DNA from: Schmidtea polychroa
Lineage: Eukaryota
Direction: 5' to 3'
Assembly (NCBI GenBank): GCA_044892525.1
Contig: CM097885.1
Coordinates: forward strand, 101,804,001 to 101,868,000
DNA length: 64,000 bases
Made by a program: the position numbers and the translations under genes. Positions 35,615 through 62,710 of this stretch are shown one piece after another (position 1 is the first letter of the stretch; each line of letters begins with the position of its first letter). The notes beneath the pieces are model-generated. The model ran no database searches, was not told the origin of the DNA, and saw only the letters and a program-made list of their open reading frames with translations.

Positions 35615-36133
35615 AAACATTCTTTTCACGATATATTTCGACAGTTTTCCTGTCATCAGCAGGTGGGATATAATAACTATGTAAAATAAGGATTTTAAAC
35701 AAATTTATTAATTATATATAAAATATTTTTTTATTTAATAAAAACATTGAATTATTTTTAAAAATTTATAATTAAATTAATATATTATTTTTTTAAATTT
35801 TAGCATTCAAAATTTAATTTAATAATTTAAAAATTTTATTAATTATTTTATTTAATACAACAATTACTACATACAATATAAAAAAACTTATTTAAAAACA
35901 CTCAAAACACAATTCTGTACATTAATTTTCGGATTAATTATTAAATTAAATTTTAAAAAAATAATATATTAATTTAATTATAATTTTTTTAAATAATTAA
36001 ATGTTTTTATTAAATAAAAATTTTTTTTATATATAATTAATAAATTTGTTTAAAATCCTTAATTTACATAGTTATTATATTCCACCTGATGATGACAGGA
36101 AAACTGTCGAAATATATCGTGAAAAGAATGTTT
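35615..36133. repeat. Long inverted repeat (foldback): arms ~35615-35800 and ~35948-36133, bracketed by N gaps
   Basis: aaacattcttttcacgatatatttcgacagttttcctgtcatca... is the reverse complement of ...tgatgacaggaaaactgtcgaaatatatcgtgaaaagaatgttt, with a few mismatches. Confidence 0.9.
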
Positions 36134-39720: not shown

Positions 39721-41440
39721 AACTCGAAGATGAAAACCGTAAAAATGAAGTAGTTTGCTACATTTAAAATTAATTATAATAATTATTGTTTTAAATAATA
39801 AATGCTGCTACAAAGAAATCATCACTTAATAATTATTATTAATATGCTATTATTATTATCACAATATAAAATGACAGTAGAAAAATGTGGAAGAGTGGAA
39901 AATTGAGATATTTAATGACAACGAAACATATGCATTCGTTTATTCATTTTTATTCATGAGGAGATGAGATTTTGAATTGTATATTTAGTCTACTTTTGTT
40001 TCTGGGAAATATTCTCAATTACCGAAGTTACTATTTCTTGTTTTCTTTATTAAAATAATTTTTCTAAGGTACTTAGTGAATTTACGATTTTAAAAGTGTT
40101 ATGATAATGAATAATAAGTAAAAATCTAATCGGAAAATGAACAGATGATCATGAAAACCACAAGTATTTGCATATACATAAGAAATAATAAATTAATTAG
40201 TTAATTAAGAAAAAAATTGAACTAACCAAACAATTGTGAGTGTAAGCAATGATTTCACATTGATATGGTTAATATATAAAGTGATGATTTCTTAGTAGCA
40301 GCATTAATTAAATTTTAAACAATTAAATGATAATTTAATTTTCGATAGTCCTTGGAAATTGACAAGGACTATCGTATAGTCGAAAAAATTTCATTTGTAT
40401 TAAATATATTATTTGCAGCAAAAGACTTAAATAATCATTTAATTGTTTAAGATATGGTGAATCGAAATAAATAGATAAAATTTCAAATGAAAATTATCTA
40501 ATGGCTGTCAAGCAGTAATTATTTTGGTGGAATTTTTATATAACAAAGTTGTGAAAGTCATAAAAAAAGCTTGAAAGTAGGATTGAATAAAATAATAACG
40601 AATATTCAAAAATAATTTTAAGAATATAAAAAGATTTTAAATATATTTAGAAGGATTTTAAATTTAAGAGATGATTTTTGATATTGATGATTTGTGATAT
40701 TTGTTAATATTTATATTTTTGTGAGCTTATTAAAAAATGGCTTGTGGAGGATTTTACTACTTTTTATATGATTAATGTCCATGAGGACTCAGTAATTGAT
40801 CAATGACAGTTAATTATAATTAGAGTCTAATAAAGATAAAAAAATTAATATATTCAACATGAATAACTATAGACAGTCAAAAATGGAAGATCNNNNNNNN
40901 NNNNNNNNNNNNNNNNNNNNNNNNNNNNNNNNNNNNNNNNNNNNNNNNNNNNNNNNNNNNNNNNNNNNNNNNNNNNNNNNNNNNNNNNNNNNNNNNNNNN
41001 NNNNNNNNNNNNNNNNNNNNNNNNNNNNNNNNNNCCATGTTAAATTATTTCTACTAAATATTTTGATAATTATGTCTTGTTTGTTGTTGAAAATAATTAA
41101 TAAACGTTCTATGAAATGCAAAAAAAATAATATCTTTCTTTTGTTCTGAATCGCAATGCAGCTAATTAACAGTGAAAAAATCAAGTAGTCGAATATTTTA
41201 CGTTATTGGTTATTTTAAATATTGTTCTATTCATTTCATATGAAAATTTAATTTTTTCAATATTTAATATTAAGCTCATACATTTTTACAAAAGATTTAG
41301 TATTGAAAATTTAATATGCTCTTTCTATTTTTAAATATTTTGTAATTTTATTTTTTGTTTAAATATTACAGTATCCACAATTAACACTGTAGGAATAATG
41401 TAATATTAAACAATTAATGTTGTTTTAATATTATGAAAAT

Positions 41441-43579
41441 GTGGTAAAAATAGAATTTGAAAAACGTTTTGTCTTACAAGCTATCCGGGCAATGGAAATC
41501 AACAAGATCATAATTGAAAATGTTGGAAAATTCGATGGCAAAAATACAGATGTGGAAGAATGGTTTGACAAATTCGAAATTATTTTGGAAGCCAAGAATG
41601 TGAAAAATGTCATGAATGTAATGCCAATTTTACTTGAAGGGCAATCTTATGCAGTTTCCAAACAGTTAAAGAAAAGCAATACGACAATGGATTTTAGTAT
41701 GCTGCAGAAGGAATTATTGAAAACCTTCGGTATGACCGAGCAAGAAGCTTTTACGAAACTTTTACAGAAAACGTTATTAGTGGGTGATAACTTGGATGTC
41801 CATGTAAATGAATTAAGCTCACTGTTGGAATGTTCAGGTGATCTACTAACCCGATTTTTTGTAAATAGTTTACCAAGTGATTTGTCAAATCAGCTCATGA
41901 TGTCAACAGGAACAACAATGAATGAGTTAGTCCCTCAAGCAAAGAAAATTGCAAGTCATCAAATTTATGACAATGAAACGAATGCAGTAGTAGTACCAAG
42001 ATCAGATAGTGGAAGACAAGCCAATCGAAAATTCTATATATGCAATAGTGCTAATCATGTGGTAAGATACTGTCCAGAAAGACGCAACATTAGATATGCA
42101 AAATGCAGTATTATGGGACATATTTCAAGGTTTTGCAAGTCGGGAAAAGATCAAGGGGCTACACACAATGTGGAGTCGGGTGTGGCCCTAAGAATTGTGA
42201 ATATGTGAGACTCCTTAAAGTAAATGGTGATGTAAAAGCATGTTTAATTGATTCGGGCAGCACTACCACTATAGTAAAAGGAAATACACGAAATTCTATG
42301 ACGCGGTAGCGATGCTTGATGGTTCAATCATATATGCTGAGCGAAGTAAAGTTGATATATGGGTTGGAGATAAGTTATTTAATATTGATTGTTTAATATA
42401 CCCGAAACTAGTATCCAATTATGATTTAATTTTAGGAGTGAATGCTATTAATATGTTTGGTGGAGTTCGATTGAATAAAGAAGCCATATTCGGCTGTGAA
42501 GAAGCACCTTGTCACGTAGCGTGCTCTAGTAGTAGTATGTCAGAAATATTGAAGGAAAGCTTTTCTGCGAGATTTGAAAACGAGAAATGGATTGTCAAAT
42601 GGAATTGGAAGTCAGAGCCGCCGACATTTCTACCTAATAGAAATTCAAACTTTTATGATAATTGTAGTAAGGATCAGGAGACGATGGTTAATGGGAAGAG
42701 ATATGCGCTTACGAAAATGGAATTTGGATTGAATATCGCGCCAACGATAATGACAGAGATTGTGAATAAAGTATTGAACAACAATGAATCAATCAAGAAT
42801 AGCACAAATTCATACATAGACGATATATTCGTAGATGAATCTAAAGTTAAAGCAAGTAAAGTAAGTGCAGAAATGCGTAAATTTGGTTTGATATGTAAAG
42901 AAGAAGAAAAGTTCAAGGATACTCTCTGTGTAAGAGTATTAGGTATTGATGTATTTCGAAAGAATAATGAACTACATTGGAAAGGATCGAACAATATTCG
43001 GATAAATGAATTAAATGAAGGGATTTCAAGAAGAGAGCTGTATTCGTTATGTGGCCAGTTAGTTGGAATTTATCCTGTGTCTGGGTGGTTGCGGCCAGCT
43101 TGCTCATATATCAAGAGGCTATCCAGTGGAAATTAGGATGATTCAATAGAAAATCATATCGTTGTCAAAGTAAAATGGTTATTAGAAAAACTGAATGAAA
43201 GAAATCCATCGTCAGGTATTTGGAGTGTTCCCAGCAATCAGACAGGCTTAATTTGGTGCGATGCAAGTTCGATCGCCATTGGAATTGTATTAGAAATGGA
43301 AGGTTCAGTGATTGAAGATACGTGTTGGTTACAAAAACCTGATGATTCAAGACACATTAATTTGGGTATTGTGAAGGGTATTAATTCATGTATTAAATGG
43401 AATCTAAAGTACATCAAAATTAAATCCGATAGTAAATCAGTTGTGTGTTGGGTTAACAGCATATTATCAAGCGACAGAAAAATACATACAAAAGCAAATT
43501 CAGAGTTGTTAATACGACGAAGGCTGGAGCTTTTAAAAGATCTAGCGATTGAGTATGAACTTTATTAGGAGGTTCATCC
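41441..43579 (+). mobile_element. Gypsy-like LTR retrotransposon A (gag-pro-RT-RNase H relic)
   Basis: Gag with two degenerate CCHC knuckles, protease LIDSGST, RT RYALTKMEFGLNIAP...YIDDI (upstream RT motifs apparently deleted near 42670), and RNase H WCDAS...IKSDS. It is interrupted at 43580 by the LTR of element B. Confidence 0.85.
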
Positions 43580-46500
43580 TGTAAAACATTAAAATCAGTT
43601 TTTGCTTCCATAAAATTTATTTCAGTAAATATTAATATCAAATTATATCTTCTTTAATCTTTCTTATTTAAACAAATTTTCTACGAAGATATTTTTAATT
43701 AAAATATCTTCTTATATTTTTTTTAAATATTAATCTAAAATTTAATTTTTAAAATTTTCAATTTAAAAATTTCTTCATCATAAAACTTCCTCATATCTCC
43801 CTTCTTAAGAAATTTTTAAGTTTTTCCACATTTCTTTCGATCCTTTTTCCATCTTCATTTCTTAAGATGTATCGTCTGTCATGCACTTTCTCTATCACTT
43901 TGTACGGACCTTCATACCTGTCCTGGCCTTTGTGGCGTGTTTCTACTTTTACTAATACTTCTTCTCCTACATTGAATTTTCTCCTTGTTTGTTCTTCTAG
44001 TTCTTCCTTTATCGGTATTTCTTTGGACCCGTACCATTTTTCCCTGTTAATCTTTTTTCCAAAAACTATCTCTGTCGGGCTTTTCCCTGTCGTTTTTTGT
44101 TTGGTTGCATTTAAAGTGAATTCGACTTCTGGTAATATCTCTGCCCAATCCGTCTTCTTTCTATCCTGTAAAGTAGCATTTATCAAATCCCGTATTGTCC
44201 TGAATTGTCTTTCTATCTGACCGTTTGTTTGGTGATGGTATGGACTCGAAAAACATAATTTAATATCTAGCATCTTTGTGAATTCTCTCATCATTCCTGA
44301 TTCAAACGCCTTTCCGCAATCAACTCTTATCTCCTTTGGGCATCCAAATCTTAAAATCCACTTTTCTAAAATCGTTTTCTTTATTGTTTTTTCGTCTTGT
44401 TTTGTTATCGCTGTCAAGACTTGATACTTACTATACTGATCTATTATGCCCAATATATACTTCTTACGTCCTTTTGTTTCTGTCAACGGTCCACATATAT
44501 CCACGAATATAATTTCGAACATTTCCTTCGAATCTTGTTTTTTTTACTGGTTCTTTCGTTGTTATTGTTAAAGCCTTGGTTTTTTGACAAATCTCACAAC
44601 TTCGAATAATTTCCTGAATCTGACTCCACAGGTGTTTTCCAACATATCTATCTTTCATATAATCGGCAATCTTCTCGACTCCAGCATGACACAATAGTCT
44701 ATGTATTTCCTTTATTGTTTCTTGTAACTCATTTTCAGGTATCATCGTTTTCTTTCGTACTTCTTCTACCATTCCATGTTGGATGTTGCTTCTTCCCTCT
44801 TCTCTGATCGAGTCTAGTAATCTGTTTTTTTATCTTTCCTTTCTTAGCTTCTTCGTGGGCCATTTGACATTGAACACACGTGTCACATTTAGTTCTCGAC
44901 ACCATGTCTGCATTTTGGTGATTAATACCATTTCTGTATTCTACTCTTATATCTAAACTGCTCAAATAATTGATCCATGTTTGGAATTGTGAAGTAATCG
45001 GCTTCTTGGTTGTCATCATAAACGTTATTGCTTTGTGGTCTGTCCTGAGCGTGAATCTTCTTCCGTAGAGATAGTGCTTAAAATGAATGCAAAAATAATA
45101 TACCGCCAATAATTCCTTTCTTGTAATACAATATCCTTTCTCGTGGCTCGTCATCGAGTGTGATCCATACGCAATTACTCTTTCCTTTTCATCTTTATCT
45201 CTTTGTGAAAGTACTGCTCCAATGGTATCGAAACTAGCGTCGGTATCTAAAATGAACTCCTTTTTCAGATCCGGAAAACATAAGATTGGCGCCGTCGTGA
45301 GTGCTAATTTCAATCCCTCAAACACGCTATTCGTTCCTTCACTCCATTCTAATTTTTTGTTACTTGGTCCGCTACATAATTGTTCTAACATCCTTGCCTT
45401 CTTTGCATAATCACTGATGAATCTTCTATAATAATTGCAAATACCTAAAAAGCTTCGGAGTTTCTTTACGCAATTAGGCTTCCCAAAGTTCTGTATGGCC
45501 TGAATTTTAGATGGGTCTGTCTGTACTCCTTCCTTGCTGATTATGTGTCCTAAGAATCTGATTTCTTCCTTTATTATTTGGCATTTTTCTGGATTAATCC
45601 TTAGGCCTGCTTCCTCAATCGCCTTTAACACTTCTCCGAGTATTGTATAGTTTATCTCTTTACTGCTTGAATAAATCAAGATGTCGTCCAAATACACCAT
45701 TGCTCCCTTTATTTTGCCTAATACTTTTGTCATCATTTCTTGGAACTTACCTGGTGCTGCTGTAATTCCAAACGGCATTCTGTTGCGACAATATTGTCCG
45801 TTCTTTGTTGAGAAAGCTGTTTTCTCCTGTGATTCTTCTTCTAGTTCCACTTGGTAATATGCATTACCTAGATCGATTGAGCTGAAAAAGACGGATCCTC
45901 CTAACAAATCCAACATCTCGTCTATGTTTGGCATTGGAAATGCCTGCCTCTCTGTTACCGCGTTCAGCTGTCTAAAGTCCAAGCATAGTCTAATATCCTT
46001 TTTCTCTTTTTTCCATACACATATTAGCGGTGTATTCCATGGATAGTTACATTTCCGTATAATTCCATTTTCGTACAAATTTTGTATTGCTTCTTCAATC
46101 TTTGATTCCAAATTTAGTGGTTGGCGATATAGTTTTATGTTTATCACCATCTTGTGTTTTACCAAATGTGTGCGACCCACATCCCATTTATCTGCCATAA
46201 ACACGTTTCCACTGTTTGTTATAATTTCCTTTAATCTGCTATCTTCATTGATCTTTAACTGTTCCAACGCTCGTATCAATCGTTCTTCATCCTTTATTTT
46301 TCTGCCAAATTTGCGCTTCAATGTTACAAATATAGTTCTTGTCTTTTTCACTAGCCTCGATATCTTTAGTTTTTAACAGTCTAAATCCAAATGTTTCTTG
46401 TAATTCGATTCCTCCAATCACATCTGGTGTCACTTTCTCCGCCACAATGAATATAACTTCCTTCGAAACATTTCCAATGGTTACTTGCACCTTCGTTTTC

Positions 46501-46842
46501 CCTATTGTCTCGATCGTACTCTCTTTTGCACATCGTAACTTATCGTCACTTTTCGTCAATTGTTGTCCTCGTAGCTTGTTAAAACAGTTCACACTCATTA
46601 CATTGATTCTTGCACCAGTGACTAATAAACAGACGAAATTTTCCCCATTCATCCTTACTGTTATACTAGGCCTTCCTTGCATTTTCCCATGAAGCAAAAT
46701 ACCATAAATACGACAAGCATTAAAAGCAGGTTGGCGTCGGAAAATAAAAGATTTTTTCTTCATAAGAGACAGGTTGGAATTATGGCCAATTTTTATGTCG
46801 AAATTCGATTAAAAGGGCATACACCTGAAATGCTGGAAAGGT
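43580..46842 (-). mobile_element. pol: Gypsy LTR retrotransposon B: protease-RT-RNase H-integrase plus 3' LTR (43580-43793)
   Basis: LLVTGA (protease, D>V), FSSIDLGNAYYQ, YLDDIL, LDTDAS, TDHKAI, HxxxxH...CxxC, integrase DICGP...VDCG...QTNGQIER. The PPT AAGAAGGGAGA is adjacent to a 214-bp TG...CA LTR. Confidence 0.92.
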
Positions 46843-47438
46843 TGTTATGAATATAATAGCAGCATACACCCCTTGAACGACTTCACCGACGAAGGGTATT
46901 GGAACACAGTTCGACAATAAAACCGTTCGCCAGCGAAATCTTTCTCTGGGGCTAATTATAGTAAATAATATAAGCTGAATTAAATAATTCAGCTTAAATA
47001 CAAATGCAAATAAATGATGCCCATGAAATAAATAATTACATAATTATGTTAGCTTAACAAAACAACTAGATTCATGTTTTAATTTTTCAATAAAAGTTAA
47101 ACGAATAGATCTGAACGATTTAGGTAAGACGACCACGAGCAAAAATAAATTTCAGAGTCAAAGAAAATTTTTGTCACTGGTTGAATTAGTAATAAAGTAT
47201 TTATTAGGAAGATCCCTTTCGATGTTTCCAGGTTGAGGCTATAGGGTGATGATAAGTAAATGACTATCCATTTTGGCGGTAAATTGGTCATCGAACTTAC
47301 GACACGGAACACTATTACCATCAGAGGATAACTATTCGTTCGAACCACTGTTTTACGTCTTAGCGGATTGATGAGAAAGATGAAATTTTTAAAAGGGGAA
47401 AAGACCATTATCGTTAACCATCCTTATTTATTAACAGA

Positions 47439-47801
47439 ATGTCTCAAACAAGTGAACCCGACGAAGCGGAATACAGGCAGAGGATCACGCGGCTCCGGAC
47501 CCGGTACATCTGGTACCGGATTCATGATTGGAACCGGGGGTTGGACCTAGATAATTATGGTCCGGTCATCCGAAGTGGCCCCGAGCCCGATGCCCCGGCG
47601 TGGATGAAAGTAGAGCCGACCAACAATGTGTTGCGAGAAGCCCGCGATCGAGCGGCCGGCGAAGTAGACGAGTCCCAGAGGCGACTGAAGAGACTCGAGC
47701 TCCAGCTCAGAGCCGAAGCAGAGGGAGTAACCCTCGAAGAGCTAGAAGAGGCAGATGCTCCTCCACGAAAACGAGGGAGGCCCCGTAAGAATCCTGCCTA
47801 A
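47439..47801 (+). CDS. LTR-encoded 120-aa protein with coiled coil, acidic patch and C-terminal AT-hook
   Basis: Intact ATG-to-stop ORF, GC-rich, ending EELEEADAPPRKRGRPRKNPA. Confidence 0.65.
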   Translation: MSQTSEPDEAEYRQRITRLRTRYIWYRIHDWNRGLDLDNYGPVIRSGPEPDAPAWMKVEPTNNVLREARDRAAGEVDESQRRLKRLELQLRAEAEGVTLEELEEADAPPRKRGRPRKNPA

Positions 47802-48112
47802 GCCGCCAGCAGTGGCAACTGGAATAACACTATCTAACAAATTTAATCCAATGATGTGGTGTTTGCGTTTGACTTCATTAGTAGCTAGTATAACAAATTA
47901 CAATTTTTGTTCATTAACCTTTTGACAACATCGTTCATCATGTATCTTCGTAGTATAATAAATTGTTTTTCTGTTATTACATTTGGACTTTATGGCTTAT
48001 GGAGTGTATTCATGATTGAGGTGACCCTTCCCATCCTTCTTCTATTAATTTTATGCAATTAATCGAATCACCTTTACGCACATGGAAGCGAGCGATGAAA
48101 TTTTATTATTGT

Positions 48113-48479
48113 TTTCCTTCAGTGTACTCGAAAATTACTCGAAAACCTACGCAAGGACCGCGAACAAGCCCAGCAACAAGCCGAAGACCTCCGAAGTCCG
48201 GTCGAGAAGCTTAAAGTCAAGTGCCGAGAGCTCGAAGGTACTTGGTTCAGTCCGGCTGAGATGAAGAAACGAACGACACACATCTCGCGACTCCAGACCC
48301 AGGCGAAGCAGGACCAACTCGAAATCCGAGCACTGAAGTTGCAAGTGTGCACGCTCGAGAGTAGATTGAACGAAAGGTTCATCCAGGACACTCTCCGAGA
48401 ACAGATTCGTCCACTTCCCGTGGAGCTGGCCAAGATATACCCCCGGCCCAGACGAGCAAGCCGAAACGTAAACGGTTAG
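48113..48479 (+). CDS. LTR-encoded coiled-coil ORF (frame open from ~48113; possible splice acceptor ending 48123)
   Basis: FLQCTRKLLENLRKDREQAQQQAEDLRSPVEKLKVKCRELE...MKKRTTHISRLQTQAKQDQLEIRALKLQVCTLESRL; preceded by ttgttttccttcag. Confidence 0.5.
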
Positions 48480-49673: not shown

Positions 49674-50156
49674 ATGGAATCAACCGACTACATTACAAAG
49701 AGACTCGAAAAATTCGTAAATTTAAAACGCAATTCGTTACAACGGCTAAATCGCAAAGCGGACCAGTTGGTGAAAATCCAAGACGAGATTAGCTTGAATC
49801 CAAGACCGCAAGCTTAGGAAATATGTGTAATGATGAAAATAGCAACGCCTAATGCAGAATTGACCACTAAAAGAGTCTACCAAATTCAAAATTTACGATT
49901 AGATAATGCCAAATTTAACATCAAATGGCAGGAGATAATGATAAAAATGGAAACAATCGAAGAAGAAATTAAAGAAGCAATCGAACATCAAGTTAAAGAT
50001 TTTAGAAAATGCTTCATATGCAGAATCAATGAAATACGAGTAATGACGATCCCATGTGGTCATTTATGTTACTGCGAGAATTGCGCAATGAAAATTAAAC
50101 GATGCAACGTATGCGATACGAACGTTAGAGAGAAAATTGTAATATACCTCCCGTAA
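49674..50156 (+). pseudogene. Coiled-coil + IAP-type C3HC4 RING E3 ligase ORF in the retroelement leader (frameshift near 49820)
   Basis: CFICRINEIRVMTIPCGHLCYCENCAMKIKRCNVCDTNVREKIVIYLP aligns to the XIAP/cIAP RING including the terminal hydrophobic tail. An upstream frame MESTDYITKRLEKF... starts at 49674. Confidence 0.85.
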
Positions 50157-51860: not shown

Positions 51861-52617
51861 GAATGTAGACGCAGAGATCGCGCGAACCAAAGCATCGATG
51901 ATTAACTATGAAATTGATTAAATTGGAATAGATTAAGTGCGACAAATATGTAATGAGTAAAGGAAAATTATGATGAAGCGCCGGCGCAAGAGAAAATGAA
52001 ACCAGTTTTTGCATGGGGAAAAGCGAACGAATAGATAGTAGTTGAATTATTGAATTTTATTTATTAATGATACGTTTATTTTGATATTTATGTGATTGAT
52101 ATTATATTTATATGATGATTATAAAAGGGATAGATAATTGATACGACTATATAGATAATTGGTACGAGTTATAGATAATTTAAAATCGACTTAAAATCAA
52201 AATGGGGTGAATAACGAGAAGTGTAGGAAAGCTAGAAAATTTGAAGCGAAGGAGCAGTAAAATAAAGGGGAAATGGAAAGTAAATGAAGGGTTTAATAAA
52301 GAGAATTTATGATATGTACTAGAAGTGTTAATTATTTTAGAATAAAGCAAACAATTCAGAAAGAAAATCAAAGAAATCAAGGAAGCAATAGAAATCAAGG
52401 GATATAAAGAAATCAATTAAAAGCGAAGAATCAAAGAAATTAATAAAACCAAATCCAAGAAGAATTAGAGAATCGTAAAGATTAAAGCGAGACAATAATT
52501 AGAAAACATCAAGCTCGATCGACGAAGTAGAAAATTTATCAAAGGATAGCAAAAGGAGGAAAAATTGATAGTATAGCTAGCCGAACCAGGCGAAAAAGTA
52601 AAGGAAACCTCAGTTTA

Positions 52618-55600
52618 TTGGAAAAGGAAGAGATAGAAAAAGCCAAGACCAACAGACAACTACACAGGAAACCGGCATCAGTGGAAAGATTATTTGAATC
52701 AAACAGTTTAACTAACGAATTTGAGAACAGCGACGATTTTAAACGAACCGAATTAGATCCAATAAGCGACGCCGAATCAACTGACGAAGAGGAAAATATA
52801 TCCGAGACAACAGAGATAACCGTACTGTGCCAAGAGATAATGTCGGACGGAAACACGAATGAACAAAGGGTAACGGACCCACCAGGAACAAGTAATGTTC
52901 ACGTCAACATTGGAGAATTCAGAGAGAAATTTCGAGGAGAGCCATTCGATGGAAATATAAACCAGCTGGAAACGTTTATAAAAGAATTCGAAATATGCAT
53001 TACGATATGTCACTGGCCAGACATAGTCATACGAGAGCGAATACCCCTATATCTAAAGGGAAGCGCCCAAGATGTATATTTAGAGGCAAAATGCGATGCA
53101 ACAAAGTTGAGAACATGGAAAGAGATCAAAGAGTTTTTAATAAAAACCTTCGGTACCGAAAAGGAAGGAAATCGGAAAATGTTGGACTTTCTACATCGAA
53201 AGCAGAAATATAACGAATCCAATGCACTGTACGCATGTGAAATGAAACGATTAGCAAGAGAAGCCTTCGATTCAAATCAACCAGTTCCGGAAGATAAGAT
53301 AATAGCCGTATTCGTAGATGGTATGAAGCGAGAGGATATACGAGCAACCTTGGGATGTCGAGCACCAGAGATGCCGGAAGAAGCACTAAAAATGGCTAAC
53401 AAATGTGAAACCTACTTAACACCAATACAAGTAGCAGCTATGACAGCAGCCCCAGCAGCTCCAGCAACAACAGCAACAACTACAAACAACCAAGTCAATA
53501 ATGCAAATCCAGTAATGAATCAATTCATCCCAGGATCGCAACAGTTGTTCAAAACCCCACAAACAAGAAACCAAGACAATAGAGGTAATATTCAAAATTT
53601 TACTAATAATTTCAGGAACAACGACATTAACAATCGAACGTGCAATATATGCCAACGATCAGGGCATTGGAGCAATGAATGTTATAGAGCAAGGATGTGT
53701 CAAAAGTGTGGGAGAAGAGGACACACGGAAAACGTCTGTAGCGGACCCATGAAGTCTATTGGCAGAGGAGGAACCAGAACCTGCTACAATTGTAATCAGC
53801 CTGGACACATGGCAAGGGAATGCAAGATGAGAGTGAAACCAAATCAACCAGGATCAAACAATCCAATTCAGAACACACAAATCAACCTCATGCAGGAAAT
53901 CGAACAATTAAAAGATATGATCCAACGAATACCGGTGAATAATCAACAACAACGAATCAACATGATGCAGAGCACCGAGGAAATCCGGAAGCAACCAAGC
54001 AGGCAACAACAAGATCAACAACGAATCGAATGGCAAAGATTACAAAACGAAGAAGCCAGAGAAATTCAAGAAAGATGGAAACAACGGGACGCGAATCCCG
54101 GAAGAATAAATATGATGAGATTAACAAATAAAGAGGAACCGCACACTGCGGAGCAGTGTGTTAACAACGAAGGGAGTGGTCCGATAATAAACGAGGAGAT
54201 AAAAACGACAAAAGAAAATGAGATTGATCAACGGACAGAATTAAGCAGTGAAGAGAAAATACAATTGATTAAAGAATTTACCCAAGAGGAGAAAGAAAGG
54301 AGACAAAAAAGAGATGAGAGTAAAGATGAATCAAAAAGTAATGAAATAGTTACAAAAATTCGAATTCAGAGGGTACTACTACAAAAAATCGAAGACAGAA
54401 TCAAAAACGAAAACCCTACATTAACTAAGGAACAAATAAAAGAAAAAGTGAAAGAGCATTGGTTCAGGAAAAATGAGTGGTTCGAAAAGAAAGAACCACA
54501 TACCAAAGCTAAAATAAACATGCTGAGACAAATGCGGAGTGACCAGACGGATCAGGAAGACGAGAAAAGTGAGGTGAGTAGCCTGGGAGGTGAATTATTT
54601 CAGTCAAGTGAGGAAAATAACGAACCAAAAACACCTCCAAACAGTGAAACACCTCAAAGTAGTGATGAGAGTGAAAATGATGACATGAAATCAATGATAG
54701 AAAAAGATGATGAGGAGATATTTGAGGAAATTTTCGACACAGTAACAGAAATAGAGCGAAATGAGAGCTACATCAACGAGTTAATATACAGAAAATGCTT
54801 AAAACTTATAACTCAAGTATACCAGTGTGAAGGAGGTATAATAACGGCAGCATGGAAAGAATTAACAACAAAATATAAAGAGAAACTAAAGGAAGCAGAC
54901 CCAGATCAATATCAAGTAAGTATTCAACACCCTGAGATTCAGATACAGACTATTGAATTAAAAGGAACAAATACTGATGAACTGTACAACTGGGTACAGG
55001 AAAAAATGGGAACGAGCCATAAAAATAAACAATTATATGTCGATGGTTACAAAGTTAAAATGGGCATACATTTGGTAGATGCGATGATATGGCCAAACGA
55101 AACGAACATCTTAACCTTAGAGAAAACCAGAGACGACGAATCAGTGGCAGAAATGTTCAAGAAAATCCAACAAGTGTTTAACAATGAAGTGGAACCAGAA
55201 TTGGAAAAGATCGAACGGAAAATAATGAAAGAAAATCAAATAATCTTAGTCAAACAAGCTATCGATCAGGCAAGGAAATATATTAATAGACTAAGAGAAA
55301 GATGGCCGCAACTAATGAAACAATTTGTCAAAGACGTACGAGACACGGAAATTATGAGATTCGAAGATAAACGAGCGACAGAATTGATATCAAAATACGG
55401 AGAATACGAGAGAACCAAATGTGAACAAGAAACGATAAAAATAAAGGTGAAATTGCCAAATGAAGAGAAACAAATAATAGAAGTTAATCCCGATTGCCAA
55501 GTTGACGAGTTAGTGCAAATCATAGATCAAGAGATCATCCAAAAAGCTCGAGAAAATAGTGAGGATGGAATGATCGAAGATGTGATAATAATGTACAACC

Positions 55601-55995
55601 GGCATATGTTAGAAAGAGGAGACCGAACTGTAATTTACGAACTAGGAATCTGGGAAGATGGAACCGTCATCAATATAATCGCGATGGATGAACCATCTGG
55701 TGGGCACAAAAACGCCACCAAAACCGATCAACAAATCAAGAGATTCCAATGGGGAATGAGAGCCAAGATGGACCGAATAATAGATATTTATAACCATTGG
55801 CTAAAAGATGATAAACTAAAACTAGCAGCATTCAATGATAAAGATTGCAAACTGATACCATGGAAAAAGGTGTGGATTGAAAGTGAAGCTCGATGGGATT
55901 GGGAACAGCAAAAGTTGGAACCAAATTGGATAGATAATATACCAGAAGAGATTGCAGCAGTATGGGTAAGAGAGAAACCGATCGATACTTACTAG
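52618..55995 (+). CDS. gag: Gag with three CCHC zinc knuckles (53641-53823), coiled-coil/acidic linker and two ubiquitin-like domains (~54910-55125, ~55430-55680)
   Basis: Capsid-type PFDG..QLETFIKEFE...W...IPLYLKGSAQDVY; knuckles CNICQRSGHWSNEC, CQKCGRRGHTENVC and CYNCNQPGHMAREC. The ORF ends at an in-frame TAG followed by DILPQE. Confidence 0.92.
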   Translation: MEKEEIEKAKTNRQLHRKPASVERLFESNSLTNEFENSDDFKRTELDPISDAESTDEEENISETTEITVLCQEIMSDGNTNEQRVTDPPGTSNVHVNIGEFREKFRGEPFDGNINQLETFIKEFEICITICHWPDIVIRERIPLYLKGSAQDVYLEAKCDATKLRTWKEIKEFLIKTFGTEKEGNRKMLDFLHRKQKYNESNALYACEMKRLAREAFDSNQPVPEDKIIAVFVDGMKREDIRATLGCRAPEMPEEALKMANKCETYLTPIQVAAMTAAPAAPATTATTTNNQVNNANPVMNQFIPGSQQLFKTPQTRNQDNRGNIQNFTNNFRNNDINNRTCNICQRSGHWSNECYRARMCQKCGRRGHTENVCSGPMKSIGRGGTRTCYNCNQPGHMARECKMRVKPNQPGSNNPIQNTQINLMQEIEQLKDMIQRIPVNNQQQRINMMQSTEEIRKQPSRQQQDQQRIEWQRLQNEEAREIQERWKQRDANPGRINMMRLTNKEEPHTAEQCVNNEGSGPIINEEIKTTKENEIDQRTELSSEEKIQLIKEFTQEEKERRQKRDESKDESKSNEIVTKIRIQRVLLQKIEDRIKNENPTLTKEQIKEKVKEHWFRKNEWFEKKEPHTKAKINMLRQMRSDQTDQEDEKSEVSSLGGELFQSSEENNEPKTPPNSETPQSSDESENDDMKSMIEKDDEEIFEEIFDTVTEIERNESYINELIYRKCLKLITQVYQCEGGIITAAWKELTTKYKEKLKEADPDQYQVSIQHPEIQIQTIELKGTNTDELYNWVQEKMGTSHKNKQLYVDGYKVKMGIHLVDAMIWPNETNILTLEKTRDDESVAEMFKKIQQVFNNEVEPELEKIERKIMKENQIILVKQAIDQARKYINRLRERWPQLMKQFVKDVRDTEIMRFEDKRATELISKYGEYERTKCEQETIKIKVKLPNEEKQIIEVNPDCQVDELVQIIDQEIIQKARENSEDGMIEDVIIMYNRHMLERGDRTVIYELGIWEDGTVINIIAMDEPSGGHKNATKTDQQIKRFQWGMRAKMDRIIDIYNHWLKDDKLKLAAFNDKDCKLIPWKKVWIESEARWDWEQQKLEPNWIDNIPEEIAAVWVREKPIDTY

Positions 55996-56001
55996 GATAT
56001 A

Positions 56002-56520
56002 TTGCCACAAGAATTCCAAAATGATTTACAACCAGAAGAAGATGAAGAGATACGAGAACCGGTAAGGTTAGCGCCATTCACGTGGAAAATTGAGAATTGG
56101 ATGGAAAAGATAAAATCAGCAAAGGAAGAGAAAATCACACGATTAGTAAGTCCACCGTTCTACTCAGGATTAGGTGAATACAAGATGAAATTGCGAATAT
56201 ACCCGAACGGAGACGAGGTAGGAAAAGGAAGTTACGTATCAGCATTCTTCATCATCTGCAAAGGGAACTATGACGACAAGGTACCATGGCCGTTTAGCAG
56301 AAAAGTAACGATAGCAATCGAACACTGAAAGATAGCCTTAACGTACATAAAGAAACAATGAAACCAGATCCAAGGAGCACCTGCTATCAACGACCGACGA
56401 CATTAGAAAATATCGCTTCTGGGACGTCTAAATTAATACGTCTAAGTTACATTGAGAATGATTAGTCAATATTCGTGAAAGACAATGCCATCCAGATCAG
56501 AGTGGAGGTGGAAACAGAAA
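56002..56520 (+). pseudogene. TRAF-C (MATH) domain within the polyprotein (frameshift ~56326, in-frame stop 56463-56465)
   Basis: FTWKIENW...SPPFYSG..EYKMKLRIYPNGD..GKGSYVSAFFII.KG.YDD..PWPF..KVT, then KPDPRSTCYQRPT..ENIASG...FVKDNAIQIRVEV: the classic TRAF-C motifs. Confidence 0.92.
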
Positions 56521-57480
56521 AAGTAATGAACCAACGACTGAACATACCGGAAAACCAACCGAGAATCTGTATGATGAGGAAAAGAGTGCCTGATTCAGGG
56601 CATCTACCAATAGACGCCGACGCAGATGAGGAGGAAGCAGCAACATTGCTAGAAGCACAAAAGTGTAAGGAGTTGATGGAGATATTACAAAACGGTGCGA
56701 AAAATCGTCGACGAGCGGTAGTAGAACTAGCAAAATGGATAGCCGAATCATGCAAAAGAATTCAAAACCTTCGAAAAATCGTTAAAGCGATTGAGGAATA
56801 TCGACGGGTATACGTATGGTACCCTGAGCAATTCGGTGAAATCATCCGGAAATGGAAACAACAAGAGTGGGCCGAAAACTCACCCGAGAAATATCAACTA
56901 AAAATATTCTTGCCAGATTTCGAACCAATGGAAAAGGAATTCTACACGACAGCCAAAGTCAGGGAAGTTAAAAAGAGAATACTTTATGAACTTCCGTTCC
57001 ATTTACAACACGAGGGGCGATCATTAGACGACGATGTTGAAATTGGTGTGACACCACTCCAAGGAGAAATTGTGAACAGACTAACGGTGAGTAAAATTGC
57101 AGGTAGAGAATTAAGGAGAAGAGAGATAAAGCAAAAATCATCCACCCAACCAGGAAGTTTGGACACACCAGAAGTCCCAAATGCGGTTAGTGAAGTGACG
57201 ATCGAAACAACGGGAGAAGACGAAATACTAGACGAATTACAAGAGAGAGTAGAAGCAGGCGAGATTATGAGAGCATCACAATCAGGAGATCTATTTATGC
57301 GCGCAAAGACAACCAGTAGAAACGACAGAAGCCGAGACGGATTTAGATAATGTAGAAAGAGGTGACAATAAAGAAGTAACTACAACCGACGAATGGAGCA
57401 ACTGGAGAGTAGATCCAGGAGCGACCACGTCAAAAGATATAACTTACAATCCGCCAAAACGGAAAGAAACCGGAACAGCT
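56475..57480 (+). pseudogene. Polyprotein segment with helical region, third ubiquitin-like domain (~56890-57090) and acidic linker (frameshift ~57300)
   Basis: KYQLKIFLPDFEPMEKEFYTTAKVREVKKRIL...LQHEGRSLDDDVEIG fits a beta-grasp pattern. An alternative frame from ~57305 runs into ATG 57481. Confidence 0.65.
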
Positions 57481-60075
57481 ATGGATCGACGAACAAGAGG
57501 AAGACCAAAAACAGATAAAGCAGAGGCAGAACCAAAATCCAAAATTCAGGCGCAAATGGAACAGGTAAAAACTAAAATGGATAAACTAAGTGCATTAGTA
57601 AAACAAGTCAAAGTGAAGACAAGCGTCCAAGAACAAGAAACACGATGGATAAACGACTTATTAGCTAACATGTTAGCGTTAGCAAATCCAGATGTGAAAA
57701 GAGTAATGAGGAAGGATAATATCCCAACCGAAGCCAAACAATTATGGGCGGTATTGAAACCGATAATAATGAAAATCATGGATAATAAAATTCGATTAAC
57801 GTTAAAAGATCCCGTGGAACTCAGATTAATTGTGGAACATCTATTAAGCAGATCAGAGGACCAAAATCGATATTTAGTGGGATTAGCATATTTAGTATAT
57901 AACGTTATTGGTCAATATAAAAAACGAATGCCAAATTACAACGCAACTGGTTACGAATTCACAGCAACGGAAGTAATCAAACGATCAATAGAACCATATA
58001 TACTTGAACAAGGGGGATGGAGAAACTTCATCGAATCAACTGGGAAGAAAGATCAAACGGAAATGATGCAAGCAAGGTTACGCGACTTGCTAACTGAATT
58101 CGAAGGGACAATCAATATGAACGATCCAAGAGCAATCCGAAAAGGAATGAATGCCATAATAACCACAATATTGATATGGATGATGTGTATCAAAGGAACA
58201 GAGTCATTTGCAGTGTACGACTGCGACAACATAAAAATCCATGAGAAATATTCATTAAAGGATACAGAAGACTGTAAAGCGGCAAACCCAAGAAAATCAC
58301 AAAGAGTCATGGCATCAGTCTCGTATAATGTATATCAAGAAGCAGATTTCATCAAAACCATGGTCCAAGAATGTACGGTAACTAGAAAGATATTCGCGCA
58401 TCACTGCGGTTCATCCTCCCACTCAACAATCATAGAACCGGGATTAGAATCGACAGTAATATTACTATCAAGAGAGGAATGCGAGGAAGGATTCCGGTCG
58501 GGGAGAATCCACTTAAGACAAGGGATTGAAATTGCTGCAGAACCAGGGAAAATAAAAACGACTCGCGTGTATACGGCAGGCAGAATAACCAAAGGAGATG
58601 GAACATGTGAGACAGGAACATACACCCTGAACGGACAACTGGTTAGTGGAGTGGTCGTAATAGAAAGCTACGAAGCTAAATTAGAAAGGTATCAAGGTTA
58701 TTTCGACCCTGACACGCAAGCAATGAAGAAATACCCAAGCTGTCTCGCATCAGATCGATCATGTTCAACCGGAATGTCAACTCTGGTATACCATGCAGAT
58801 CAGAAAGTATGTCGACTAATGTTACTCAAGACAGCAATATTCGAAGAAATCCAAGGGAAAGTGTACAGTGAACCAAAAGGAGAAGCAGAAAAACGAGCGA
58901 TGGAAGAGTTGAGAGCAAGGAAAGGATTCAGAGAAGACGTAATAACCTCGAAATTGGAATCGGAAGTGACACCCAAGGCGATAATCTCCAAAGACGATGG
59001 AATAGGAATGAGGTTCATAAAGAACAAAGTGGTGAGTAAATGCGATGAGATGGTGATCAGCACCAATTATAAAGGGATCTACTTGTCACGGAGAACCCTA
59101 GCAAATGCAGTCGGAAGACTAAGCGAAAAGGATGTCAAATTATATTTATATGCTAATAACAAAATGGATTTCTTATATCACAGAGGATTAACATCTACGG
59201 AAAAAGTCTATCATGATCTGTTAAGAAACGATTGCCTGCTCAACAAAGAAATATTGAGAACAAAATTAGCAATGGCAATTACAAACCCAGATAACGCAAT
59301 TCCGTTACTACCGCTGCAAGAAGGATATTTCGGACGAATCGTGGGCGAAGTAATGTACACCTACCAATGCAAAAAGATAATTGCAAGATTGCCGGAAAAC
59401 CCTATTATACCAAGGAATAAATGTGCAAACGAACTCGAAATCATCCACGAAGGCAAACCCAGATTTGTGCAAGCAGTCACCAGGATAATGAACCCGGTAG
59501 AGTTTCAACCAAACCTGTTTAATTGTAGTAATGCATATGGACCAATGTATGAAAAAGAGGATGGACAATGGGTGCAATTTCCAAGTAAAACAATCGTAAT
59601 AGCACCCAAGAAATTTGGATTGTCGGAACTAACAACAGAATTAGAATTCAAGCCGATAGACGTATCCCAGAGTGGATTATATACACCAAAAGATCTTGAA
59701 TCAGCAAGAGCCCACATGTTATTTCCAGCACAGAGACAAGCGATCTTGTCAAATATAGTGACTATTTCTGGAAGAAATAATTATGGGGAGAGCCCGAATT
59801 ACGAGCTATTATTATCACCAAGTCACTATCAACAAGCAACAGCAAATATGATGAAGGCTATGTGGGGTCGATTTTTGGTATTTGGCCAAATGATGGCAGG
59901 AATACTCGGAATTATTCTGATAATACAAATAGTCAGAGTGATACTAACTCAGATGTTAGCATGTTTTGACATCTATAAACGCGAGAGAAAAGTAAATTGG
60001 AAACTTACAATTGGATTCTTACCGTTCTTAGCGAAAACAATGGTGTTGCATGGACACTCAAAGGATATTTATTGA
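57481..60075 (+). CDS. env: Bcl-2-like domain (~57640-58040) + internal signal sequence (~58150-58206) + chuvirus/Monjiviricetes-type fusion glycoprotein with TM (~59870-59960)
   Basis: BH1-like QNRYLVGLAYL and BH2-like YILEQGGWRNFIE; glycoprotein motifs AVYDC..YSL..C, QECT....HHCG..SH, GDGTC, ANNKMDFL, NDCLLN, GYFGRIVGEVMYTYQC and CANEL...TRI. Confidence 0.88.
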   Translation: MDRRTRGRPKTDKAEAEPKSKIQAQMEQVKTKMDKLSALVKQVKVKTSVQEQETRWINDLLANMLALANPDVKRVMRKDNIPTEAKQLWAVLKPIIMKIMDNKIRLTLKDPVELRLIVEHLLSRSEDQNRYLVGLAYLVYNVIGQYKKRMPNYNATGYEFTATEVIKRSIEPYILEQGGWRNFIESTGKKDQTEMMQARLRDLLTEFEGTINMNDPRAIRKGMNAIITTILIWMMCIKGTESFAVYDCDNIKIHEKYSLKDTEDCKAANPRKSQRVMASVSYNVYQEADFIKTMVQECTVTRKIFAHHCGSSSHSTIIEPGLESTVILLSREECEEGFRSGRIHLRQGIEIAAEPGKIKTTRVYTAGRITKGDGTCETGTYTLNGQLVSGVVVIESYEAKLERYQGYFDPDTQAMKKYPSCLASDRSCSTGMSTLVYHADQKVCRLMLLKTAIFEEIQGKVYSEPKGEAEKRAMEELRARKGFREDVITSKLESEVTPKAIISKDDGIGMRFIKNKVVSKCDEMVISTNYKGIYLSRRTLANAVGRLSEKDVKLYLYANNKMDFLYHRGLTSTEKVYHDLLRNDCLLNKEILRTKLAMAITNPDNAIPLLPLQEGYFGRIVGEVMYTYQCKKIIARLPENPIIPRNKCANELEIIHEGKPRFVQAVTRIMNPVEFQPNLFNCSNAYGPMYEKEDGQWVQFPSKTIVIAPKKFGLSELTTELEFKPIDVSQSGLYTPKDLESARAHMLFPAQRQAILSNIVTISGRNNYGESPNYELLLSPSHYQQATANMMKAMWGRFLVFGQMMAGILGIILIIQIVRVILTQMLACFDIYKRERKVNWKLTIGFLPFLAKTMVLHGHSKDIY

Positions 60076-60084
60076 ATAAAAAGA

Positions 60085-61041
60085 TTGTTGAAAATATTAA
60101 CGCAAATGAAAGGGACAGACGAAGAAGTCGGACGTAAGTTCAAAGTGATAATGAGATTAGAAGCAGAAAGAACTCAAGAGAAAGCGAAAAGAACCGGGAA
60201 GTGGAAAAAGTGGATGAACCTCAGACGAAACGATGACAGCGACAACGACAATGATGATTTCGACGACGATGATAATAACCAAGGAGGAGCAATGCTGATA
60301 AACAAAAATACAGCCACTTGGGAAAACGAAAAAATGAAACCATGGGGATCACCATATTTACAGGCATCAACTAATGGACCAATGCGACGACCAGGAACAA
60401 TGAGAGAACGGATAAGAATGGGAACCGGAAGATTACCCATACCAAACATTTATCCAACAGCTTATGAACCAAATTGGGCAGCAATGGATCCAACGATGAT
60501 CAAACAGGCTAAAAGTGTAGAACAAGAAGTTGAGACACGAACGATTGCGGTATTGCAGACACCAGCCGGACCCTCATTAAACATCACGGTTGAAGTAAAC
60601 GGAATAGAGATGGATGCAATGATCGATACCGGAGCAAACTTTTCGGCAATAAATATGAATATGCTACCAGGTAGACTATGGCCATGCATTGAAGAGACAA
60701 CCATGGATGTAATAACATGCAGCAAACAATCCATAGCGACAGTAGGAAGAGTATGGTCAACGATTGAATATAGAAGGGTTAAAGTTACAACGTACCTCGC
60801 AGTCATTAGACAGCTAAGCGTATCATGTATAATTGGAACAGATGTAATGCCGGAATTGTTGAAAGAAATTGTGATTGATTTGAGTTCCATGAAATTAAAA
60901 GATAAAACGGGACAGATATGCACAATGAGAACAGAAGTGAGATGTTCCGAAAAAATGATAATACCAGCACGTACCCAGACCATATGTTATGTCAAAGTCG
61001 ATAATGAAGCCAAAGGAAATATGATATGTATATTTTTGTAG
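60085..61041 (+). CDS. pro: Linker + retropepsin aspartic protease (DTG at 60625), in frame with env across a single TGA
   Basis: VEVNGIEMDAMIDTGANFSAI...SCIIGTDVM, followed by the Gypsy-type post-protease spacer IIPARTQTIC. Confidence 0.9.
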   Translation: MLKILTQMKGTDEEVGRKFKVIMRLEAERTQEKAKRTGKWKKWMNLRRNDDSDNDNDDFDDDDNNQGGAMLINKNTATWENEKMKPWGSPYLQASTNGPMRRPGTMRERIRMGTGRLPIPNIYPTAYEPNWAAMDPTMIKQAKSVEQEVETRTIAVLQTPAGPSLNITVEVNGIEMDAMIDTGANFSAINMNMLPGRLWPCIEETTMDVITCSKQSIATVGRVWSTIEYRRVKVTTYLAVIRQLSVSCIIGTDVMPELLKEIVIDLSSMKLKDKTGQICTMRTEVRCSEKMIIPARTQTICYVKVDNEAKGNMICIFL

Positions 61042-61043
61042 AT

Positions 61044-61802
61044 ATGAATTATTTAAAAGAAAGAGAATCAACGAGTAACGAAGAAAGAAGGTCAAACGAC
61101 CAACCCGAACAAAGCCAGAATACGATACCAATCAAACAAGAACCGATGAAATATTATAGTAATAAATGGAGAGTCAGCAAGAAGTTGTTCAGAACAAAAA
61201 TTGCAAATCAAAATGAGAGATTACGAGATTGAGACAGCAAATTGTTCAATCAAGGCGATTAATAAACACTGTCAAGCAAGAAATTTTGAGGGAAATAAAT
61301 TAATCGAAACGAAAAGAGACAGAAAATAAAAACCTGAGACAAGAGATAGTAGAGTTGAGAGCTCAGGCAGTAATCGAAGACTATTGGAAATCAGAAACAA
61401 GGAAGTTGAAATATCGATCAAGTTTATATCGAACAGTTAGAAGCACAATATGCTTATGCAAAAACGAGAATGCGAGAAAGTAAAAAAGTCGAGAAGAGAA
61501 ATGCAAAACTCAAGGAAGAGATCAAGGAACAAAGAGAGAAAACAGAAAAACAATGGAAGTTGAAGGAAAATTACCAGAGAATTTTAAATCAAAAACGACG
61601 AAGCATGCAGACACTGCAGACGACAATGACCATCAAGCAGAGAAAATGGAAAAGTAAAGAGAAGCAATTACAAGAAATACCAGAATTAAAGAAACAGTTG
61701 GTAGCAATGCAACTCGAAATAATAAGAATGAACGAGTTGAGTAAAAGACGAGCACCTGAACCTCCCGTAAAATTAAGGGATGAGGTCGGTGACTCCCAAT
61801 AA
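61044..61802 (+). pseudogene. Disrupted coiled-coil accessory ORF
   Basis: K/E/Q-rich heptad-like segments in the fragments 61026..61232 and 61470..61802. Confidence 0.55.
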
Positions 61803-61861
61803 ATGAGACAAAATAACTGTGTAAATAAATTGTAAATAAAGCCAAGTAATTATTGTTAAAG

Positions 61862-62710
61862 ATGAGAAGCCTAATCGTGGTGATGATTATAATGACAATG
61901 CCAAGAATCCTGCAAGCTGAAGAATCAATGATCAGATGCCAGAAAGAATACCCATACCGAAGAGAAGATAGCACCTGTAGTAGCTTTTAATCGATCTGCG
62001 AAAAACCCAATGAGGAATGCGAACAAATCAACTCGCAATGTTCGCAATGTCCACAAACAACAGAAAATTCGATGGAAGTGCAAATGGCTCAGACAATAAA
62101 AACAAGCTTGGAACAAGAAATGAAAGTTATCAGAACCCAGATAGCAACATTTGCCAAACAATGTCAAAGCCAGAAATCAAAGAAAGAATCCCAAACAGAT
62201 CCAGCCGCAATGAGAATGATAAAAACATTAGAGGAAATAAAACAACAAGTAATAACAGCCGCCGATGGACGTTCAAGCAATTGCGGAATGGTAGTGAAAT
62301 CTTTAGAGGAAATGAAAGGAAAAATAACTTCCATCATCAAAGAGGAACCCAGCATTAAAAAGGAAGTGACGAAAAACTTGAAAGAAATAACAAGAGAAAT
62401 CTTAACTGCCATGAACAGGAATCCGATGAACTCCGAAAAGATGATTAAAACCCTTGAAGAAATTAAAAAGAAAGTTGTCAGCTCGGAAGAAAACAAACTC
62501 GACAAACCCGAAAAGTCGGAAATTGTAGATATAACCCAAGTGAGAGAAACTATGAACAAACTCAAAGTAATAGAACCAAGAGAGTCTGAACCCCTCACAA
62601 AATCGATCCTATTAGCGGCGAGCCTAATGGTAAATATCACCATACTGAGCCTGATTGCACTCAAACCCAATTTCAGCAAAGAAATAAACAAAACCTTCAA
62701 ACTAAAATAA
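61862..62710 (+). pseudogene. Accessory type-I membrane-protein-like ORF: signal peptide, Cys-rich head, repeated coiled-coil stalk, C-terminal hydrophobic anchor (one in-frame TAA)
   Basis: MRSLIVVMIIMTMPRILQA-EESMIRCQKEYPYRREDSTCSSF*SICEKPNEECEQINSQCSQC is in frame with 62072..62710, which contains SILLAASLMVNITILSLIAL. Confidence 0.65.

Follow-up and report, generated by a model that had tools for sequence, protein, structure and literature searches.

Giant gypsy-like long terminal repeat (LTR) retrotransposons named Burro or GYPSM1 have been described from Schmidtea mediterranea (PMC6431247, citing Jurka 2007 and Grohme 2018), and Arkhipova and Yushenova (2019) presented Burro as the first case of an in-frame env between gag and pol (PMC6431247). 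Chary and Hayashi (eLife) reported GAG-ENV-POL elements with gB-type envelope proteins from Platyhelminthes, Nematoda and Bryozoa; such elements are not monophyletic, and the gB-type ectodomains of the GAG-ENV-POL errantiviruses are bordered either by a signal peptide and a transmembrane (TM) segment or by two TM segments (PMC13524379). The same source cites non-canonical endogenous retroviruses of nematodes (Sacco et al. 2022) in which env precedes pol and an RNA-virus glycoprotein was captured by a metavirus. BEL/Pao elements with a chuvirus-type glycoprotein (Dezordi 2020, PMC7642597) draw on the glycoprotein family treated here. Here we analyze a 64,000-nt window of Schmidtea polychroa (the whole stretch of DNA studied; all coordinates are positions in it, and the features lie on the + strand), which holds a copy, now decayed, of a Gypsy retroelement of the Burro type; its env stands between a Bcl-2-like domain and the protease (PR).

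That position of env between BCL2 and PR is a published layout rather than a new one (PMC6431247, section 7; PMC13524379), and little is added to the gene order here; how a lumenal fusogen could arise in the middle of Gag-Pol is the matter we did not find in print. From sequence features and structural models, we consider it likely that an internal signal peptide threads Env into the endoplasmic reticulum (ER) and that one TM segment returns the chain, giving a cytosol-lumen-cytosol path, because Env lies within one Gag-Pol polyprotein and the features of the signal peptide are conserved in distant relatives. The present analysis modestly strengthens this model.

Two open reading frames (ORFs), 57271-60075 (934 aa) and 60076-61041 (321 aa), share the same frame and are split solely by a TGA at 60073-60075. 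The open frame 57271-60072 begins with the Bcl-2-like domain, which is divergent, and goes on to encode a segment resembling a signal peptide, then a class III glycoprotein and a single strong TM helix. The order proposed in the first-pass annotation (a Bcl-2-like domain, a hydrophobic segment about 40 aa further on, ectodomain, TM helix, linker and aspartic protease) was confirmed from the sequence and from Pfam matches. In the list below, KD19 is the Kyte-Doolittle hydropathy of a 19-mer and pN/pS the ratio of non-synonymous to synonymous change.

57628..58035 (+), divergent Bcl-2-like domain, predicted cytosolic, with the BH2 motif GGW at 58012-58020; profile-level homology
58036..58152 (+), linker of about 39 aa ending in the basic n-region RAIRKGMN, read from the sequence
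58153..58206 (+), internal signal peptide with a 13-residue h-region and the c-region KGTES; signal-peptidase cut predicted after 58206
58207..59856 (+), ectodomain of a class III fusion glycoprotein (chuvirus G / herpes gB-like), predicted lumenal; PF24664 and fold
59857..59976 (+), transmembrane anchor, core at about 59890-59946, then KRERK; KD19 peak 2.53
59998..60048 (+), less hydrophobic second stretch with a proline at its center; probably forms an interfacial helix-kink-helix at the cytosolic side of the membrane
60073..60075 (+), TGA private to the window copy; open in 35 distinct other copies
60076..60582 (+), hydrophilic linker from Env to the protease, predicted cytosolic; hydropathy scan, pN/pS 0.05-0.21
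60583..60858 (+), retroviral-type aspartic protease; Pfam RVP E 7.9e-6, DTG at 60625-60633

The uncharged run AIITTILIWMMCI begins at 58153, 47 codons past the first G of GGW and about 40 past the end of BH2, and is followed by KGTES and a mature-like start, FAVYDC, at 58207. With an n-region of net charge +2, an h-region of 13 aa and T-x-S at positions -3/-1, it has the features of a cleavable signal. Among 158 sequences, a hydrophobic run precedes the [YWF][DN]C start in 94, of which 68 are N-terminal and 26 internal (one internal case, P0156, is probably a false pattern call and was kept in the counts); many of the other 64, which have no qualifying run, are fragments. The median h-region length is 14 for the N-terminal and 13.5 for the internal runs, and the -3/-1 rule, scored on the assumption that the cut always lies the same distance ahead of the [YWF][DN]C start, is satisfied in 50 of 68 N-terminal and 24 of 26 internal cases. 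The identification of the segment as a signal peptide in the first-pass annotation is thus borne out by features conserved in distant relatives. Because 68 stand-alone relatives have a segment of this form at the N-terminus, the one here is, judged from these sequences, the signal peptide of the glycoprotein itself and was retained when fusion placed the gene within Gag-Pol. In the copies it lies about 1,800 residues downstream of the first Met; late internal signal sequences have a precedent in coronavirus pp1a. Relative to six of eight copies it carries no non-synonymous change, a count made on just 19 codons.

Other copies of the element indicate that the window copy descends from a much longer frame. 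A DNA search of the genome gave 590 candidates, of which 40 were scored; four minus-strand rows among the 39 non-self matches listed stayed outside the copy counts. The site of the 60073 TGA is open in 29/29 other loci and in 18/18 longer stretches (35 distinct copies altogether). Of 18 + strand copies, 11 are open without interruption from Gag to PR, and in 12 of 14 copies the frame stays open for about 2,050 aa from PR to beyond integrase (IN), with Pfam matches to reverse transcriptase (RT), RNase H, integrase and Ank_2. Most copies examined carry Gag-MATH-Bcl2-Env-PR-RT-IN within a single frame, a giant ORF of about 4,790 codons from stop to stop by coordinate arithmetic. In comparisons of the window with eight copies, pN/pS was 0.05-0.35 in every domain but the short signal peptide (ectodomain, 0.06-0.13; Bcl-2-like domain, 0.13-0.32), a pattern of substitutions by which the element's domains are under purifying selection. 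A second family of the same genome (family 2), 33% identical, has the same domain order in one frame, and five long public proteins have env ahead of PR in one ORF, with further such cases among other relatives; a near-length protein search yielded only three relatives.

Since the codon at 60073 is sense in 35/35 of the other copies examined, the check on which the first-pass annotation had made its polyprotein depend found no conserved stop: the TGA is random, private decay with no recoding signal, and readthrough or re-initiation at this site is ruled out.

Pfam Monjiviricetes_fusion (PF24664) matches the 934-aa ORF at E 1.7e-69, and an AlphaFold2 (AF2) model built with 105 sequences reached a mean predicted local distance difference test score (pLDDT) of 81 as a monomer, with a long central helix at residues 505-552. 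In Foldseek searches of the PDB, herpesvirus gB ranked first (E 1.1e-14) with low TM-scores of 0.27-0.31 by query, and among viral models chuvirus-like glycoproteins came first (Tacheng Tick Virus 4 G, E 1.9e-36). When PDB sequences were searched with a profile, gB alone was returned, at a best E of 0.008. The ectodomain contains 14 Cys, compared with none in the flanking Bcl-2 and linker spans, and an RxK/RR motif of the furin type was sought in 58207..59856 and not found. By sequence and predicted fold, the window glycoprotein is a class III fusogen of the gB/chuvirus type.

Downstream of the ectodomain, 59857-59976 is the sole segment above a KD19 of 1.6 within 57271-61038, and the hydropathy scan of the Env-protease linker (60076..60582) found neither a hydrophobic peak nor Cys. 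In the AF2 model the TM segment forms part of a single long helix, model residues 731-786, continuous with the membrane-proximal region, and two short helices follow it at a second stretch, 59998-60048, which the first-pass annotation had not mentioned. This second stretch is conserved and moderately hydrophobic. Whereas the main TM segment reaches a KD19 of at least 1.6 in 18 of 19 element proteins, the second stretch does so in one (range 1.01-1.66). Its proline occurs in seven of eight long-tailed relatives compared with 10 of 80 short-tailed ones, the latter mostly stand-alone-size glycoproteins (17 of 105 rows in which the region was not covered were dropped, and P0045 is misaligned there). 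Given these models and profiles, an interfacial helix is likely the best fit; were the stretch to span the membrane, Pro-Pol would be left on the lumenal side.

Under the threading model, some 1,800 cytosolic residues would be synthesized before the signal recognition particle binds the internal signal peptide and signal peptidase cleaves after KGTES. The ectodomain would then fold in the lumen, and the TM segment would halt transfer, leaving the proline-kinked stretch on the cytosolic face. The protease, tethered behind the Env tail, would dimerize at the membrane with the help of Env trimers and free Gag, the cargo domains and Pol. Finally, the cut signal peptide would stay with the upstream half and keep Gag-MATH-Bcl-2 at the ER until its release, for which the anchored C protein of flaviviruses and the core protein of hepatitis C virus (HCV) offer an analogy. 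The Gag N-terminus, MSDG, has no myristoylation glycine. If the model is correct, it would join retroviral replication to membrane processing in the style of RNA viruses, and these elements may travel from one planarian cell to another in the form of enveloped particles; the combination of a young, high-copy family and a predicted cut site makes it testable in a model animal. A broader interpretation, which we put forward as doubtful, is that the assembly of gag-env-pol elements resembles that of RNA viruses budding at the ER: the Env signal peptide left behind by cleavage would anchor the whole Gag half, the trimerizing Env tail would tether and activate the protease, and Burro would have placed a captured Bcl-2 fold just before that anchor, so that each particle-making cell would be loaded with a membrane-bound regulator of cell death.

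How the products are balanced is a separate matter. The first-pass annotation held that the arrangement fixes Gag:Env:Pro stoichiometry, and this stands for synthesis, where one ORF sets a 1:1:1 ratio, and not for the ratio in particles, which the ORF does not fix. Scans of the window and the copies revealed neither a stop nor a frameshift signal nor a splice site through which Gag could be made in excess. The default guess is that Env and Pol beyond need are degraded, as is reported for Tf1. With regard to programmed -1 frameshifting, a depletion of slippery heptamers seen against codon shuffles (1 vs 18.6) was rejected as a specific signal, since with synonymous shuffles it appears in all three registers together with fewer A-runs, and since it is absent in family 2. 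As a separate observation, runs of at least six A are about half as frequent in the coding frames of family 1 as in synonymous shuffles (9 vs 16.6; 11 vs 19.7), despite a strong A bias.

Several observations weigh against the threaded topology. The ectodomain has a single N-glycosylation sequon, at 59521; hydropathy was scored with Kyte-Doolittle values and a crude biological scale; and the copies examined are the best-scoring DNA matches, so young copies are favored among them. In addition, the frame contains an ATG at 58147, two codons ahead of the h-region, that may start a stand-alone Env. This ATG is one reason to ask whether Env and Gag-Pol come from separate mRNAs or start sites, by an env-skipping splice or a subgenomic env message, in which case the long chain would never be threaded; the env of Drosophila gypsy is spliced, and a capsid requires far more Gag than Env or Pol in Ty3 and retroviral assembly. 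Nevertheless, a Met within 20 aa of the signal peptide is found in only 10 of the 26 internal cases and is missing in 16, family 2 included. A simple scan of 57000-58150 found no acceptor-like splice site, and the Bcl2-Env and PR ORFs of the window contain no in-register slippery heptamer. Both junctions, moreover, keep the reading frame between families that share about 33% identity, a constraint that separate messages would not impose, and we regard this explanation as improbable. Four presumed-RNA contig sets cover the region, and none of the four joints listed has GT..AG ends or skips env; such contigs show presence only and are neutral on splicing. A C-terminal anchor with two or three crossings and mixed topology, in which some chains would have lumenal Pro-Pol and the yield of Pol would be lower, seems very improbable. 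The main hydrophobic region extends over about 40 aa, the second stretch is conserved across the glycoprotein family with a median KD19 of 1.26-1.45, and its values of 1.5-1.66 in six of 19 relatives may be compatible with a second crossing, which is a further point against a single one. However, the central proline is present in 19/19 element proteins, K/R residues flank the stretch, the main AF2 helix shows no hairpin, and an even number of crossings could not be the sole form because RT and integrase must presumably reach cytosolic RNA.

The remaining alternative concerns why the signal peptide was kept: on this view it was retained for the very purpose of anchoring the captured Bcl-2-like domain by its tail, and the domain would block cell death at ER or mitochondrial membranes. 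The first-pass annotation had called the domain Bcl-2-like, and this holds at the level of profiles: a profile of 10 relatives matches Bcl-xL in the PDB at E 7.4e-4, hhalign against host-like Bcl-2 genes gave a probability of 95.6 (20 shuffled controls reached at most 0.26), and relatives match PF00452 below its cut-off, at E 0.003 and 0.001. The window domain is divergent, with no Pfam match, a phmmer comparison with Bcl-xL reaching only E 0.46, and a degenerate Bcl-2 homology 1 (BH1) motif that reads DQNR where host-like genes have NWGR, so the intact groove motif is absent. It is modeled as all-helical, with a pLDDT of 44-76 within the long model; Foldseek gave no match at E <= 0.001 to the model of the domain alone. 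Homology to the Bcl-2 family over BH1-BH2 is therefore shown at profile level only. The host-like gene L105 (C1:268544203-268544481) is the top match to the Bcl-2 profile of the element (E 5e-12, the next match 1.5e-4) and is a candidate relative of the donor. Elsewhere in the genome, multi-copy Bcl-2-like frames (L109-L113), whose matches span one TAG, are probably borne by another repeat family, and in L109 and L112 the frame ends in its own short tail anchor, with the stop 46 aa past GGW.

For an anchor role speak the placement of the Bcl-2-like domain 27-59 aa (measured from GGW) ahead of the signal peptide in 7/7 GGW-bearing internal cases (27 aa in family 2), a spacing close to that in stand-alone tail-anchored Bcl-2-like ORFs of the same genome, the lack of any other hydrophobic tail on a domain under purifying selection, and the TRAF and BIR-RING ORFs that the element also bears. 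Mechanically, the cut peptide would stay on whatever precedes it, so the Bcl-2 domain and the Gag half would be anchored unless another protease cut first. Counting against the role, the peptide is the glycoprotein's own and predates Bcl-2 capture (68 N-terminal cases, and 19 of 26 internal ones without an upstream GGW), the full gag-env-pol proteins P0004-P0008 have no Bcl-2 ahead of env, and h-regions are not longer in Bcl-2 carriers (median 13 vs 14). The element's protease or signal-peptide peptidase could also release the domain, the domain modeled by itself did not give a confident fold (pLDDT 45.7, without a match), and the degenerate BH1 makes BH3 binding doubtful, although poxvirus Bcl-2-fold proteins act without it. 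Because the peptide belongs to the glycoprotein and an upstream Bcl-2 is lacking in most relatives, anchoring Bcl-2 would be a secondary use of it, and we predict retention as a functional tail anchor only tentatively, as a serious candidate that falls somewhat short of probable.

Outside the Bcl2-Env-PR region, the window copy is more broken than the first-pass annotation described. Its account of one frame with a single TGA is accurate within 57271-61041 and fails towards Gag, where a stop and two compensating frameshifts near 56323 and 57296 intervene (indels relative to 8/8 copies), and towards pol, which is deleted after 61027. The remaining features of the copy are as follows.

52531-55995 (+), Gag ORF, carrying three CCHC knuckles
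52840..53830 (+), Gag from the first Met through the three CCHC zinc knuckles; zf-CCHC E 7.5e-11, CCHC motifs seen in the translation
55993..55995 (+), stop codon private to the window copy; open in 16/16 aligned copies (2/18 did not align there)
55996-56328 (+), MATH-domain ORF
56077..56319 (+), MATH/TRAF domain; MATH_2 E 8.9e-20
56466-57350 (+), frame-shifted segment
61027..61028 (no strand), junction at which about 11 kb of internal sequence is deleted; alignments to copies stop at 61027

Window positions 61040-62000 correspond to sequence about 11 kb further along in the copies, and the deletion strips RT-RNase H-integrase and the accessory ORFs from the window copy. It also moved two charged accessory ORFs of the family's 3' part (61410-61802 and 61991-62710, +) beside the protease; neither has a clear Pfam family, and the second ends in a hydrophobic stretch. 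In the copies, the ORF continues after integrase for about 1,100 aa that include ankyrin repeats; beyond it, TRAF (zinc finger and MATH) and BIR-RING (IAP) products are encoded in ORFs of their own. A RING finger remnant (E 2.4e-11) lies upstream of Gag at 49818-50156 (+) and has no DNA match to the IAP ORF of a copy at E 1e-20. Other repeats in the window include two further decayed Gypsy-type remnants, at 41429-43568 (+) and 43791-46808 (-), with gag-, protease-, RT- and integrase-like frames in their translations; a segment, 47009-48438, that recurs at 94% about 7-9 kb past the window end, the two probably being parts of two LTRs; and a 152-nt inverted repeat (35615-35766 / 35982-36133, 94% complementary, 215 nt apart) resembling a miniature inverted-repeat transposable element. 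Among the related public proteins, P0004-P0007, P0010, P0012, P0013 and P0018 have two or three DTG/DSG motifs per chain, often two in tandem after Env, and a single-chain protease might be formed by such tandem protease-like domains. In P0004-P0006 and P0008 the chain terminates, past integrase, in a further hydrophobic anchor, the second of the protein.

Compared with described elements, the family resembles Burro, which has a Gag with three CCHC knuckles, MATH and BCL2-like domains, an in-frame env of mononegavirus-like type before PR, ankyrin and BIR cargo, and an ORF1 of 4,873 aa against about 4,790 codons here (PMC6431247). The copies likewise have a giant ORF from Gag through integrase with env in frame between the BCL2-like domain and the protease, and the cargo is represented by MATH in the window and by Ank_2, a TRAF ORF and a BIR-RING ORF in a copy. 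Burro-type elements also have long LTRs and a total length of about 30 kb, of which the recurrence of 47009-48438 past the window end gives a hint. The window copy differs in being broken and without pol. Pfam found no match in 56466-57347 or after PR; the Ubi2/SUMO-like domain of Burro (between MATH and BCL2) and its dUTPase-like domain (between PR and RT) came from HHpred, and section 7 of that paper is silent on a signal peptide, topology or Bcl-2 anchoring (PMC6431247). Among the HSV/gB-type errantiviruses Smed_errantivirus_1-6, the nearest comparison for the window env is the Smed_errantivirus_6 segment, to which it is about 70% identical (about 112 of 157 positions, counted by eye), which makes the window family its sister rather than identical to it, and family 2 is near-identical, also by eye, to Smed_errantivirus_2 (PMC13524379). 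The main text of that paper does not use the words 'polyprotein', 'fused' or 'frameshift' and does not treat processing. We found no literature on the processing or topology of such polyproteins, a subject that supplements, subscription papers and Sacco et al. (2022) may treat; the phrase 'gag-env-pro-pol' and a Burro1 anti-apoptosis paper, sought by name, were not found.

The BEL/Pao-type protein P0055 also has an internal signal peptide, behind a DUF5641 domain, but its glycoprotein ends the protein, so there are no enzymes to re-emerge. The nematode elements, which belong to another host phylum, reportedly have a continuous gag-env-pro-pol ORF. With respect to flaviviruses (C-prM-E) and HCV (core-E1), to which the first-pass annotation likened the membrane path, the resemblance holds for the logic of processing: the capsid-side protein ends in the signal peptide of the next glycoprotein, a lumenal cut by signal peptidase is paired with a cytosolic cut by the viral protease, and the enzymes follow the last TM segment. 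It does not extend to the glycoprotein, since flavivirus E is a class II protein with a prM chaperone and several lumen excursions, whereas the window fusogen is class III and would make one. Because the fusogen is class III, the likeness to flaviviruses is one of processing and not of ancestry, and no homology is claimed.

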